From contig MHKS01000005.1 of assembly GCA_001818495.1 (NCBI GenBank), positions 116,188-180,187 on the forward strand: a stretch of 64,000 nt of DNA, read 5' to 3'. Of this stretch, positions 3,503-37,568 are shown one piece after another (within the stretch, counting starts at the first letter, position 1; each line of letters begins with the position of its first letter). The notes under the pieces are model-generated. The model had not been told where the DNA came from and did no database searches. It was given only the letters and a program-made list of their open reading frames with translations. The stretch comes from Candidatus Komeilibacteria bacterium RIFOXYD1_FULL_37_29. GTDB taxonomy: Bacteria; Patescibacteriota; Patescibacteriia; UBA1558; GWA2-36-10. The position numbers and the translations under genes were made by a program.

Positions 3503-4564
3503 TTAATTGAAGTGAAAATGCACGGTATCTCCATCACGCATGATATAATCTTTTCCTTCCATACGCATATGGCCGGCTTCTCGCCCTTTGTTCCAGGCAC
3601 CATCATTTAAGAGATTTTGCCAGTCAATCACTTCCGCTCGAATAAAACCTTTTTCAAAATCAGTATGAATTACACCGGCCGCTTGTGGCGCTTTAGTTCC
3701 TTTGGTAATGGTCCACGCTTTGGTTTCTTCTGGGCCAGTGGTGATAAAGGTAATTAAATCAAGCAATTTATAGCTGGCCGTAATGAGATTATCCAAACCA
3801 CTACAAGTTATGCCCAATTCTTTCATATATTCTTTGGCTTCAGCTTCTTCTAAATCAGCTAGTTCAGCTTCGGTTTTGGCGCAAATGGAAATAGACCCCT
3901 CTGGTAGATGAAGATCCTTTCCAACTGCGACTTCGTCAATATTGTATAAATAGATAATTGGTTTATTACTCAAAAGATTTAATTGGCGGCTCAATTTTTT
4001 TTCTTCGTCGTTTAATTCTAGTTTATTGAGCAACTGGTTATTCTCTAGATGATTTTTGATTTTTTCCATCAGAATTTTTTCTTTTTCCAGAATTTTATCA
4101 TAAGGACCCTTCATTTTGGAAACAATTTTTTGTAGGTGTTTGGTCACTACTTCTAAGTCAGCCATAATCAGTTCTAGATTGATAATTTCTTTGTCATATT
4201 CTGGATCAATATTGCCGTGAACATGAGTGACGTTGGGATCGCTAAAACTTCGGATGACCTGCACTATGGCATCAACCTCGCGGATGTTTGATAAAAATTT
4301 ATTACCCAAGCCCTCACCCAAAGAAGCTCCTTTAACCAATCCAGCGATATCGACAAACTCAATAGTAGTCGGCACAATCTTGGCTGATTTGGACATAACG
4401 GCTAGCTTATTCAAACGGTCGTCTGGCACCGCTACCACTCCTACATTGGGATCAATAGTACAAAAAGGGTAGTTAGACGCTTCCACCTTGTTTTTGGTCA
4501 GGGCTTGAAATAGGGTGGATTTACCGACATTGGGCAGTCCGACAATTCCCAGAGAAAATGACAT
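3503..4564 (-). CDS. ychF: ribosome-binding ATPase YchF (Obg-family GTPase with TGS domain)
   Basis: [24 protein letters not shown]-loop, [19 protein letters not shown], and a C-terminal TGS-like end ...[11 protein letters not shown]. Confidence 0.9.
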
Positions 4565-4781
4565 AAATATTTTATTGGTTTAAATTGATAATAACAAACC
4601 AAATTAAATCATAAAGCCCATAAAAAGGCAATATCATTTTTATAAAATATTAAATAAAACAAACGTTGCGCTGGCGGAAAATTGCATTTTCCGAGGCTTA
4701 CTTGTTATTTTATTTAATATTTTATAGCTGATGTTTTATAGTTGGCTTTATTTGTTTATTTGGGCTATAATATTTTTACTT

Positions 4782-17599: not shown

Positions 17600-17628
17600 T
17601 TGACAAAATATCTTTAAAAGTGTATAAT
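17600..17628 (+). promoter_or_regulatory. consensus sigma70 promoter TTGACA-N17-TGTATAAT driving the DGR target gene
   Basis: TTGACA at 17600-17605, a 17-nt spacer, and an extended -10 TGTATAAT at 17621-17628. Confidence 0.6.
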
Positions 17629-17814
17629 TACATATTAACTAAAGTACCTTTAAATCCTCCCGCCAGAGGCGGGTAAATGCAAAAAATGAAGTGGTCATAG
17701 TCAAAAGTGGCTTTTAAATAAGCCTTTTCTGACTATGACTACAATGGTCATGGCTCCTCCTCGGATTAGAGGAAAGACGGAAAATACCCAAATAAGGGTA
17801 TAAAGGAGATAATC
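17629..17814 (+). promoter_or_regulatory. long structured 5' leader of the DGR target gene
   Basis: The roughly 185-nt leader has a 14-bp near-perfect inverted repeat (gtcatagtcaaaag ... cttttctgactatgac) and smaller GC hairpins (cccgcc-aga-ggcggg). AAGGAG lies 7 nt before the ATG. Confidence 0.35.
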
Positions 17815-18459
17815 ATGAGTACGGAATTTTCATCCGCTGACTACACCGCTGGTCAACTTAACGCTATGGTTAAGTTGCTTAAGAAGCAGGTTGGCGAAGA
17901 CGGCCCTGAACGTTTTCTTCGTGGCGAGATCACGGTCTCCCAACCCGTTCGTGCTTGGCGCGAACAGGATGGAGTAATCTACTTCTCAGTCACCTCAAAC
18001 GGTTTGACTGGTCCCGAGTGGATTGCTCATTTTGAGAAAAAAGGTGATCGTGTCGGCAACTGCGCCAAGCAGTCACTCTGCTCTGCCGAGTTTAAACCCA
18101 CTAGTGATATTACTTATAACATCGCCGTGATGAAGGGCATGATCTTTAACGACAAGGATCGTGTCACCAAGAAGATCCGTAACGAGGCCGACTGCAGGAA
18201 GTTCGCCAAGCCCAACGCCGAGATCGCGTGTCTTATTCGTGATAAGTTCACGGACGCCGAGATCGAGGCTATGGGTTTGATCTGGATCGTCACCATGCAC
18301 GAACCCATCGAGGTTTCCGGTGGTAGCCTGCGCCTGCTGGGTGCCCATCGCGGTGACGGTGGTCGCTGGCTGGATGCCTACTACGGCACTCCTGGCGTTC
18401 GGTGGGGTCGTGGGCACGGCTTCGCTTTCGTCGTTTCGCAAGTGTGCCCTGAGAGCTAA
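17815..18459 (+). CDS. DGR target (variable) protein; the C-terminal ~43 residues are encoded by the variable repeat
   Basis: GC-rich ORF (about 50% GC against about 35% in the neighbours). Its 3' 128 nt is an adenine-mutagenised copy of the downstream template repeat. The C-terminus is ...GGRWLDAYYGTPGVRWGRGHGFAFVVSQ. There is no signal peptide. Confidence 0.75.
   Translation: MSTEFSSADYTAGQLNAMVKLLKKQVGEDGPERFLRGEITVSQPVRAWREQDGVIYFSVTSNGLTGPEWIAHFEKKGDRVGNCAKQSLCSAEFKPTSDITYNIAVMKGMIFNDKDRVTKKIRNEADCRKFAKPNAEIACLIRDKFTDAEIEAMGLIWIVTMHEPIEVSGGSLRLLGAHRGDGGRWLDAYYGTPGVRWGRGHGFAFVVSQVCPES
18314..18441 (+). repeat. DGR variable repeat (VR), 128 nt
   Basis: Aligns base-for-base with 18785..18912. 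All 19 mismatches are at positions where the downstream copy has A. The last 24 nt are identical in both copies (the IMH-like end). Confidence 0.85.
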
Positions 18460-18784
18460 GTTCCTTAGAATTTCAGTCCTTTGGGCGTAGCCCTTGGCCC
18501 TGTTCCGATTCGTCGGGATGGGGCCTCTTTTTTCATTCAAAAAATGATATAATTATTTTGGTAATAGGCGAATATGTAGACGACTACGGTTTTCTGCTGC
18601 CGAATCCAGCGTCCATACAATCCAGAATATCTTAGATCAAGGTTTAAGGTAGTGTGATGTGTGCGAGCTTAAAAAATAAAGACACTTGGTGCAAAATGCT
18701 GGCGCATTTAAAATGCTAAATAAAATACAGCTCGAAGAGTATTCAACGAGCAGTGATAGAGATGACATTTTGTACAAAAACGCT

Positions 18785-18912
18785 TTTCCGATGGTAACCT
18801 GAACCTGCTGGGTGCCAATCGCAATGACGGTGGTCGCTGGCTGAATACCTACTACGACAATCCTGACAATCAGTGGAATCGTGAGAACGGCTTCGCTTTC
18901 GTCGTTTCGCAA
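18785..18912 (+). repeat. DGR template repeat (TR), 128 nt
   Basis: Non-coding copy of the VR. It is rich in AAC/AAT codons in the VR frame (gat ggt AAC ctg AAC ... AAT cgc AAT ...). It lies between the target gene and the RT gene. Confidence 0.85.
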
Positions 18913-18933
18913 CTTTCTTTATTTCTCCTCTAG

Positions 18934-19251
18934 CTATCTGCTAGGGGGGTTTTGTTTTGTCAGTTGTCCATTCCAACCGCCAAGCATTTTGCCTATTTCA
19001 TCTATTTTAGTAGCCAAAAGTATATATTTTTTGGTATCTAGAGATTTGGTTTCCCAAAGTAGGAGCAAGAATATTTTTAAAGTATCTATTTTTTGTATAG
19101 CTCTTTTAACATAGGGCAGTTTTTCTGTTTTAGTCAAAAAACTAGCCGTAGCTATGGCCTCTATAGCTTCTACAAACAAATTATCAACTTTTTGTCCTAA
19201 AGTATATTTATGTGTCTTTACTAAGGTTTGATGATAACCATACCAAAGCAA
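18934..19251 (-). CDS. possible Avd-like accessory protein (four-helix-bundle / 23S-IVS protein family), opposite strand
   Basis: 105-aa helical ORF between TR and RT. Its C-terminal half (KIFLLLLWETKSLDTKKYILLATKIDEIGKMLGGW) resembles the conserved ...EIGKML... end of Avd/IVS proteins. It has a TTG start, and the N-terminal half is shorter than bAvd. Confidence 0.4.
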   Translation of the reverse strand: MLWYGYHQTLVKTHKYTLGQKVDNLFVEAIEAIATASFLTKTEKLPYVKRAIQKIDTLKIFLLLLWETKSLDTKKYILLATKIDEIGKMLGGWNGQLTKQNPPSR

Positions 19252-19312
19252 ATAAGCCGCTTTTATTTTCTGAAGTAGTGGTAAAAGTTGAGGGGGGGGT
19301 AGAATTAGTGGT

Positions 19313-20299
19313 ATGGGGAAAATTCAATTTATTCATGACTACAATTATATCATTTCTTTGGAGAACTTGCTTGAAGCTTGGCAAGAATTTTTGTGCGGTA
19401 AGTGGCAGCGTCAAGATGTTCAAGAGTTTGAACGGGATCTAATGACCAATGTTATTATTTTGCATAATGAGCTAATTAATTTTACCTATTTTCATTCTGG
19501 TTACAAGGCTTTTAAAATATCCGATCCCAAACCCAGAGATATTCATAAAGCCAGTGTACGTGATAGGTTACTGCACCACGCTATTTACAGGCAACTTTAC
19601 CCATTCTTTGATAAGACATTTATCGCCGATTCATATTCTTGTCGAAATAATAAAGGTACACACAAAGCTATAAATAGTTTTAGAAGTATGGCTTACCAAG
19701 TCAGTAAAAATCATACTAAAACTTGCTGGGTATTAAAGTGTGATATTAAAAAGTTTTTTGCCAACATTGATCATGATATATTAAAAAGTATTTTAATTAA
19801 ATACATACCAGATAAAGATATAATTTGGCTACTAAACAGAGTTATTGATAGTTTTGAAGTTAATCCAGGGAAGGGTTTGCCCTTAGGTAATCTAACGTCT
19901 CAATTATTTGTAAATGTTTACATGAACGAATTTGACCAATTGGTAAAACATCAATTAAAACAAAAATATTATATTCGCTATGCTGATGATTTTGTATTTT
20001 TATCTAGTAATAGGCAAGAGCTAGTAAGTATAGTCAAATCAGTTTATGAGTTTTTAGGCAAAAAACTTACTTTACAAATTCATCCTAATAAAATATCTTT
20101 GGCTACTTTGGTCAGTGGCGTTGATTATTTGGGGTATGTACATTTTCCTAAATACAGAATACTGCGGACTAAGACTAAAAAAAGAGCACTGCGCTTGGTG
20201 AATCGTAAAAATTTACCATCATATTTAGGTGTTTGTAAACATGCCAATGCTTTTGTTGTACAGCAAAGGTTGATTAATAAGGTTGATAAAACCAATTGA
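19313..20299 (+). CDS. DGR-type reverse transcriptase
   Basis: RT motifs are present, and the DGR-diagnostic motif 4 LPLGNLTSQLFVNVYMNEFD (an IGxxxSQ variant) precedes the YADD box (YIRYADDFVFL). Its size of 328 aa is typical of DGR RTs. There is no maturase/En domain. Confidence 0.85.
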   Translation: MGKIQFIHDYNYIISLENLLEAWQEFLCGKWQRQDVQEFERDLMTNVIILHNELINFTYFHSGYKAFKISDPKPRDIHKASVRDRLLHHAIYRQLYPFFDKTFIADSYSCRNNKGTHKAINSFRSMAYQVSKNHTKTCWVLKCDIKKFFANIDHDILKSILIKYIPDKDIIWLLNRVIDSFEVNPGKGLPLGNLTSQLFVNVYMNEFDQLVKHQLKQKYYIRYADDFVFLSSNRQELVSIVKSVYEFLGKKLTLQIHPNKISLATLVSGVDYLGYVHFPKYRILRTKTKKRALRLVNRKNLPSYLGVCKHANAFVVQQRLINKVDKTN

Positions 20300-37478: not shown

Positions 37479-37568
37479 GGAGAGTTCGCATAGTGGTCGA
37501 GTGCGCTCGCTTGGAAAGCGGGTAAAGTGTAAAAGCTTTCAAGGGTTCGAATCCCTTACTCTCCGCCA
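37479..37568 (+). tRNA. tRNA-Ser (anticodon GGA), CCA encoded
   Basis: GGAGAGT acceptor stem pairs with ACTCTCC-G-CCA. D-arm TAGTGGTcGAGT. Anticodon stem-loop CTCGC-TTGGAAA-GCGGG gives anticodon GGA. There is a long variable arm (typical of Ser) and a T-arm GGTTCGAATCC. Confidence 0.85.

Follow-up and report, generated by a model that had tools for sequence, protein, structure and literature searches.

Diversity-generating retroelements (DGRs) of the bacterial candidate phyla radiation (CPR) were reportedly first surveyed by Paul et al. in 2017 (Nat Microbiol). The arrangement of a template region (TR), the gene avd and a reverse transcriptase (RT) gene, written TR-(avd)-RT, is named B3 and makes up 90% of the CPR DGR set (Wu et al. 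2018, PMC5758913). The cellular DGRs of Patescibacteria form their own clade 2 (Roux et al. 2021, PMC8144416). Their target proteins typically carry no transmembrane or conserved domain, and the domains holding the variable region (VR) are predicted as new variants of the C-type lectin (CLec) fold (PMC8144416). Here, we describe the element at 17600-20299 of a stretch of 64,000 nucleotides (the window), taken from a genome bin of Candidatus Komeilibacteria in the Rifle groundwater dataset and recognised by its exact target protein, OGY95204.1. The element is very probably a genuine and complete chromosomal DGR of a Patescibacteria (CPR) lineage with the B3 architecture.

This DGR is a standard member of the CPR class described in 2017-2021 and its layout is ordinary, because the B3 gene order, the CPR host and the domain-less target match those of Wu et al. 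and Roux et al. The CPR B3/clade 2 DGRs share with it the host group, the chromosomal location, the gene order and the inverted avd. In both, one small target lies upstream, carries its VR at the C-terminus and lacks any signal peptide, transmembrane segment or Pfam domain, and no architectural difference separates the CPR B3 DGRs from the window element. Two features go beyond the descriptions that we found, a covarying RNA domain 5′ of TR and, secondarily, a structured leader of the target gene.

The cassette spans about 2.7 kb and runs in the order of target(+), TR(+), avd(−) and RT(+). All its parts are intact. The RT and Avd frames are of full length, the YADD motif is present, all the AAY codons (Y being C or T) stand in TR and the RNA domain is complete. 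The initial annotation, made from the sequence without database searches, had called a complete DGR here. Its VR/TR pair, target and RT are confirmed, and what it overlooked are the avd gene on the minus strand and the conserved structured RNA.

Exact comparison aligns VR and TR without a gap over 128 nt at an offset of 471 nt, just as first claimed, with 109/128 matches and 19 mismatches. At every mismatch, TR has A and VR has G (14), C (4) or T (1). The early claim that the mismatches are confined to the TR adenines thus withstands tabulation (19/19), and off-adenine mismatches are excluded. TR has 29 adenines, 19 altered in VR and 10 unaltered, and if 19 mismatches were placed randomly, the probability that all fall on the 29 A positions is 9e-16. 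The mismatches are also all at codon position 1 or 2 of the 17815..18459 frame (19/19), and the VR/TR homology breaks off sharply at either end.

VR constitutes the final 43 codons ahead of the tail in the 214-aa target frame. In this frame, TR has 3 AAC and 6 AAT codons, all nine altered in VR, so the richness in such codons noted earlier is real. A stop codon is reachable from 0/18 adenine-containing TR codons, and about 1e16 protein variants are allowed. The 3′ identity of VR and TR is a GC-rich stretch of 26 nt, not 24 nt as initially counted, and a conserved GC-rich hairpin, also terminator-like, is located 55 nt downstream of VR. A scan of both strands of the window that required match only at the non-adenine TR positions found no second VR. 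It matched VR and TR only, and a remote target or second VR inside the window is rejected.

The adenine specificity extends to the relatives. We fetched 83 related loci, all via the target protein and its closest relatives, hence of one target family only. In about 43 of them, TR lies 465–480 nt downstream of VR and the mismatches are almost only at adenines. When 43 distinct VR/TR pairs of the family are pooled, 50.6% of the TR adenines are mismatched vs 1.1% of the other positions. Their substitution spectrum is A to G in 63%, A to T in 23% and A to C in 14%, and the strong bias to G could reflect either a misincorporation preference of RT or selection for Gly, Asp and Arg codons.

The RT carries LPLGNLTSQLFVNVY and YADD, which bears out the earlier reading of a 328-aa DGR-type RT with its motif before YADD. 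As judged by search scores and motifs, its affinity is to the phage enzyme. Among the solved structures, the best match is Bordetella phage bRT (8ub7) with 147 bits and E 5e-42 over residues 12-296, whereas no group II intron or retron RT exceeds 75 bits. In the motif alignment with bRT, LGNLTSQLFVNVY is paired with IGSLTSQLFANVY, LGNLTSQ with IGSLTSQ, and YADD with YMDD. In the profile search, PHROG 1423 is matched with 345 bits.

Avd matches Pfam bAvd with 40.8 bits (cut-off 40) and PHROG 3206 'Avd protein of DGR' with E 5e-13, and it has no match in a sequence search of the solved structures. The gene is on the minus strand, opposite to target and RT, in 47/47 related loci having avd. On this strand past the avd stop, at 18913-18933, the run after the shared hairpin is rich in A instead of U. 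The avd transcripts may run antisense into TR.

Several points weigh against an element that is genuine, complete and working. No VR variant of it occurs among 24 contigs from several samples, and the activity of this particular copy is unproven. The VR tail, resembling an initiation of mutagenic homing (IMH) site, is identical to the TR tail, and no element that discriminates donor from recipient is evident. Avd scores 58.8 bits to NCBIfam DivGenRetAVD, under the cut-off of 80, and where the promoter lies, where the RNA begins and ends, where priming occurs and what the 5′ domain does are all predictions. Lastly, the best NCBIfam match of RT is a group II intron RT/maturase at 143 bits, below its cut-off of 300, in a collection that has no DGR-RT model.

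That last match is what speaks for a locus other than a DGR, namely a chance or gene-conversion repeat beside an RT of a group II intron, retron or defence system. The phage DGR RT, however, is matched by the window RT with double the score of any group II or retron RT, and Avd is present. There are no intron RNA domains, and Rfam gives no match to the group II intron or retron noncoding RNAs. The VR/TR mismatches, the RT scores and the same pattern in 43 related pairs refute the non-DGR reading, to which we give practically no chance.

As to the phage counterpart, the Bordetella phage BPP-1 DGR has the order mtd-avd-TR-brt, and its bRT-Avd-RNA structures are those of the 8ub7 series. The window RT is homologous to brt's product over the whole length, both being 328 aa with the LGxxxSQ and YxDD motifs and an Avd partner. 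The adenine-specific mismatches, the AAY codons, the shared 3′ VR/TR identity, the stem-loop just 3′ of TR, and the duplex that pairs sequence upstream of TR with sequence downstream of it are likewise common to both. The window element differs in being cellular and not phage-borne, in its target being no tail fibre and in the domain of about 215 nt 5′ of TR. The upstream strand of the bracketing duplex also lies about 100 nt from TR here but adjoins TR in the phage.

The Bordetella phage RT-Avd requires RNA both 5′ and 3′ of TR (Handa et al. 2024). The phage RNA parts are an Avd-binding stem-loop just 3′ of TR, a duplex that stops the synthesis of complementary DNA (cDNA), a primer:template duplex and, in the spacer from TR to RT, a stem-loop that binds RT (Handa et al. 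2024). The RNA survey across DGRs took in 40 nt on the upstream and 100 nt on the downstream side of TR (Handa et al. 2024), and the 5′ RNA domain of the window falls outside that 40-nt upstream span. The corresponding features of the window element are collected in Table 1.

Table 1. Features of the element, in window coordinates
Feature	Position	Strand	Remarks
Target promoter	17600..17628	+	TTGACA, 17 nt, TATAAT; 12/12 consensus; conserved across family loci
Structured 5′ leader of target mRNA	17636..17814	+	Hairpins 17692-17741, 17754-17774, 17786-17799
Ribosome-binding site of target	17803-17808	+	Abutted by last leader hairpin
Target (variable protein) gene	17815..18459	+	214 aa; exact match to OGY95204.1, Candidatus Komeilibacteria
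Variable region (VR)	18314..18441	+	Last 26 nt (18416-18441) same as TR, IMH-like
Terminator-like hairpin and T-run	18496..18535	+	Hairpin 18496-18525; GC-rich 13-pair stem, then TCTTTTTT; 40 loci
Extended −10 box, predicted promoter of TR RNA	18545..18553	+	TGATATAAT; TATAAT core nearly invariant, 40 loci
Structured RNA domain 5′ of TR	18560..18775	+	About 215 nt; P1 18560-18607; P2 18614-18663; P3 18689-18775
Subparts of RNA domain	18674-18682; 18704-18716; 18730-18751	+	A-rich linker; P3a; P3b (P3a and P3b enclosed by P3)
Template region (TR)	18785..18912	+	Non-coding; 29 adenines; 9 AAY codons in target frame
Proposed 3′ strand of long-range duplex	18916..18924	+	UCUUUAUUU; pairs with linker 18674-18682; brackets P3 and TR
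Hairpin and U-tract 3′ of TR	18925..18959	+	Conserved; starts 13 nt after TR; terminator-like
avd	18934..19251	−	105 aa; inverted relative to target, TR and RT; Avd profile matches
DGR reverse transcriptase (RT)	19313..20299	+	328 aa; Pfam RVT_1; LGNLTSQ and YADD motifs

The spacer from the target stop to TR is 325 nt and its length is kept across 40 loci. From the 5′ side, it holds the hairpin with the T-run, the −10 box and the RNA domain. The hairpin is conserved in 40 loci with varying stem sequences. It looks like an intrinsic terminator and could, in addition, correspond to the inverted repeat that other DGRs have downstream of IMH.

RNAalifold on 37 loci predicts that the RNA domain folds into three helical parts, P1, P2 and P3, and that two hairpins lie within P3. 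The pairing is kept in 96.7% of the alignment cells, vs 85% in shuffles and 38–50% with the partners slid. Compensatory changes occur in 44/59 pairs, and 0/500 shuffles reach the observed values. The window sequence folded alone gives the same structure. A covariance model, R1, has one match in the window, at 18558-18796 with 201 bits, and scores 150–255 bits at every TR-bearing locus.

RNAalifold predicts base pairs inside TR also. They are not accepted because their changes are almost all one-sided, which fits coding constraint. Against Rfam 15, neither the window nor 16 relatives have any match of the RNA domain at the gathering threshold.

The domain appears tied also to the 3′ side of TR. 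The linker and the 3′ flank would form a 9-bp duplex, which is paired in 87.6% of cells vs 51–62% with the strands slid, is compensatory in 6/9 pairs and is reached by 0/500 shuffles. This long-range duplex has moderate support. A local hairpin in its stead was rejected with little covariation.

The TR 3′ flank is conserved as CAACUCUCUUCAUUUCUCUCC, a loop and GGAGAGUUUUGUUUU, with the avd stop codon on the opposite strand at the hairpin tip. This hairpin at 18925..18959 occupies the place of the Avd-binding stem-loop of the Bordetella phage DGR RNA (Handa et al. 2024).

A rival account is that the 215-nt block is separate from the DGR RNA, either a small RNA in its own right or a 3′ element of the target mRNA. 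In its favour, the transcript span is predicted from the sequence, the domain is detectable only beside one target family, as expected of loci fetched via the target protein, and weak relics exist at some loci without TR. However, the terminator and the conserved −10 box stand between the target gene and the block, the conservation continues unbroken into TR, and 9 nt separate the closure of the P3 stem from TR. The covarying duplex, moreover, joins the domain to the flank 3′ of TR. The domain is at full score wherever TR is present and absent or degraded where TR is gone, and the DGR RTs are known from published work to need structured RNA around TR. We consider the separate RNA improbable and favour the domain as part of the DGR RNA.

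In the literature consulted, we found no description of this RNA domain, which is no proof of absence, and the published CPR DGR surveys (Wu et al., Roux et al.) do not describe a structured domain 5′ of TR. The BPP-1 spacer from TR to RT is the conserved motif RT-10, and other RT-associated motifs were speculated to serve other DGRs (Weinberg et al. 2017). The RT-n motifs of Rfam (RT-10, RT-7 RF03028 and RT-16 RF03019) are likewise structured RNAs beside RT genes, and one at least belongs to a DGR. The window scores 27 bits to RT-7 (threshold 116.8) and 23.4 bits to RT-16 (threshold 50), the RT-16 match ending at the TR start. Such scores are far below the gathering thresholds, so membership in RT-7 or RT-16 is rejected. 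The link is dropped because these weak matches fail to recur, none being found in eight relatives at E ≤ 0.1.

Mechanistically, the extended −10 box would drive an RNA of about 400 nt that consists of the three-helix 5′ domain, TR, the short conserved 3′ flank, and the hairpin with the U-tract, ending at 18959. RT and Avd would assemble on this RNA, with Avd probably bound to the stem-loop just 3′ of TR. The linker/3′-flank duplex and P3 would bracket the template and limit the cDNA synthesis to TR, resembling the 'cPRT Stop' duplex of the phage.

The scaffold functions given by the spacer (Sp) in the phage element probably fall to the 5′ domain here. With avd inverted, no free spacer RNA is left between TR and RT. 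The sequence downstream of TR is the antisense of avd, and hence the 5′ domain would take most of the scaffold role and the template would be a discrete RNA. We therefore propose, tentatively and at somewhat less than even chance, that in the TR-(avd)-RT DGRs the scaffold RNA has moved from the 3′ side (phage Sp) to the 5′ side, with a discrete template RNA of about 400 nt from its own promoter.

In the subsequent steps, the reverse transcription would misread the TR adenines, and the cDNA would replace VR under guidance of the 26-nt 3′ identity. Up to 18 codons would be recoded, with no stop, on what may be the ligand-binding face of a small CLec-like protein.

The target protein is small and has neither a signal peptide nor a transmembrane segment. 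It matches no Pfam, NCBIfam or PHROG entry, Pfam FGE-sulfatase and DUF1566 included, in agreement with the initial annotation that saw no signal peptide or recognisable domain. A sequence comparison with the solved structures finds no similarity, and neither the CLec variable proteins (Mtd 1yu0 and Treponema TvpA 2y3c) nor the FGE-sulfatase-type domains resemble it in sequence. Across the target family, a conserved GFAF.VSQ motif closes VR.

The variable C-terminus was initially thought to be unlike the CLec endings. The predicted fold instead resembles C-type lectins, matching many of their animal domains with weak scores. A Foldseek search of the target model against PDB and the viral models gives nothing significant, and lectins dominate the top matches. 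With moderate confidence, the fold is CLec-like, at best a divergent CLec variant in view of the low scores.

The target gene stands out also by composition. Its GC content at third codon positions is 0.61 in the non-VR part (17815-18312) vs 0.25–0.35 in all neighbours, avd and RT. Across the family, the correlation of GC with the host composition is r = 0.22 for target and r = 0.88 for RT. At the target third positions, both G/(G+A) and C/(C+T) are raised, and the orphan targets, those lacking the rest of the cassette, are alike. With the purine and pyrimidine shifts equal and the orphans sharing them, the high GC is not a footprint of adenine mutagenesis beyond VR, and this explanation is rejected.

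The target mRNA begins with a leader of about 180 nt, conserved in the DGR-linked and orphan loci alike. Its pairing is kept in 92.7% of cells vs 36–45% with the partners slid, 20/29 pairs are compensatory, and 0/500 shuffles reach this. The leader matches no Rfam family and may regulate the variable protein in cis, either like a riboswitch or by binding a protein. An extra GC-rich leader hairpin (CCCGCC AGA GGCGGG) at 17652-17672 is found in the window only and is absent from the other aligned family members.

The target family exceeds 1,185 proteins with a length of about 210 aa, every one from Patescibacteria, and the target relatives occur in at least 235 species-level genomes. Among the 83 related loci, avd is present in 47, and the gene order with the inverted avd is kept over many CPR classes. 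The cassettes of different lineages adjoin different housekeeping genes, here a 2-hydroxyacid dehydrogenase gene and a tryptophanyl-tRNA synthetase gene. Elsewhere, a tRNA-Ser gene (anticodon GGA) at 37479-37568 is the sole RNA gene that Rfam or ARAGORN detects across the window.

Decay is common in the family, in the forms of TR without RT, RT fragments, and RNA-domain relics at the orphan targets. About one third of the loci have the target but no TR, avd or RT within 4 kb (L006, L009, L016, L036, L046, L061, L069 and others). Weak or partial matches of the RNA domain remain at the target-only loci L026, L042, L066, L068 and L076. Such relics suggest that DGR is repeatedly lost and a fixed target kept, and the other target-only loci could be served remotely by a DGR located at another place in the genome.

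Some loci have rearranged layouts. In two of L049, L051 and L072, avd comes directly after target without the RNA domain and TR, and in the third, RT comes directly after target without avd. Deletion may have given rise to these layouts.

Other samples gave two short contigs of low coverage, L092 (1236 nt) and L093 (1060 nt), which both start at window position 17749. They match the window by 100% only to about 18555 (within 17749-18559) and then continue into different sequence. As far as the sequence tells, one seems to enter a gene like that of cytidylate kinase and the other the C-terminal end of a different RT. They could be chimeric assemblies at the conserved hairpin/promoter or could show the target module in more than one context.

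The sole match in a viral collection is an IMG/VR contig (L095), where 3986-4654 encodes a 222-aa homologue of target residues 57-210 with no RNA domain nearby. Viral origin of the element is rejected, this partial homologue without the RNA domain being the only one in IMG/VR.

Sibling proteins of the family vary almost only in VR, so the family is active. In the P0019 cluster (90% identity, 11 distinct proteins), the variable columns are 0/165 in the N-terminal part vs 18/50 in the VR tail. In the P0051 cluster, they are 2/159 outside the VR tail vs 17/50 inside.

The copy in the window behaves as if fixed. Its exact target protein is found on 21 contigs from several samples, all with one and the same VR, and its cluster has just two further members, whose differences are outside VR. 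The VR and TR DNA is identical on every recovered contig, those of strains differing nearby included. One such contig (L088) has 35 single-nucleotide polymorphisms in the adjacent dehydrogenase gene and none in DGR, and another (L094) has two non-synonymous target changes, both outside VR. A pattern scan of the metagenome contigs for TR/VR variants, with every TR adenine taken as N, gave no match. As seen in the assembly consensus, VR of this copy appears fixed in the sampled groundwater population.

The constancy of VR, the neighbouring changes that spare it and the frequent decay elsewhere in the family raise the view that the element no longer diversifies, being quiescent or domesticated with VR fixed after past mutagenic homing. 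We find this unlikely, though worth keeping in mind. RT, Avd, YADD, the AAY codons and the RNA domain are all intact here, and siblings of the same design are clearly active. Furthermore, the assemblies report consensus sequence only and most samples are from related groundwater sites, so low-frequency VR variants would stay invisible. An intact element of an active family is the reading that we prefer.

As a DGR, the element adds little, since CPR genomes are known to be rich in this layout, and its genome comes from the groundwater dataset where the CPR DGRs were first surveyed. Its value is that of a clean, compact and widely replicated example. It is suited to asking why VR is frozen in some populations and churning in sibling lineages. 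It is suited also to asking what the variable proteins without signal peptide bind in ultra-small and probably host-attached bacteria.

Another question is how RT-Avd primes and stops where the downstream flank of TR is the antisense strand of avd. To this, the conserved 5′ RNA domain offers a concrete and testable answer, and it may aid compact DGR mutagenesis tools. If the leader acts as a regulator, it would place the expression of the variable protein under RNA-level control.

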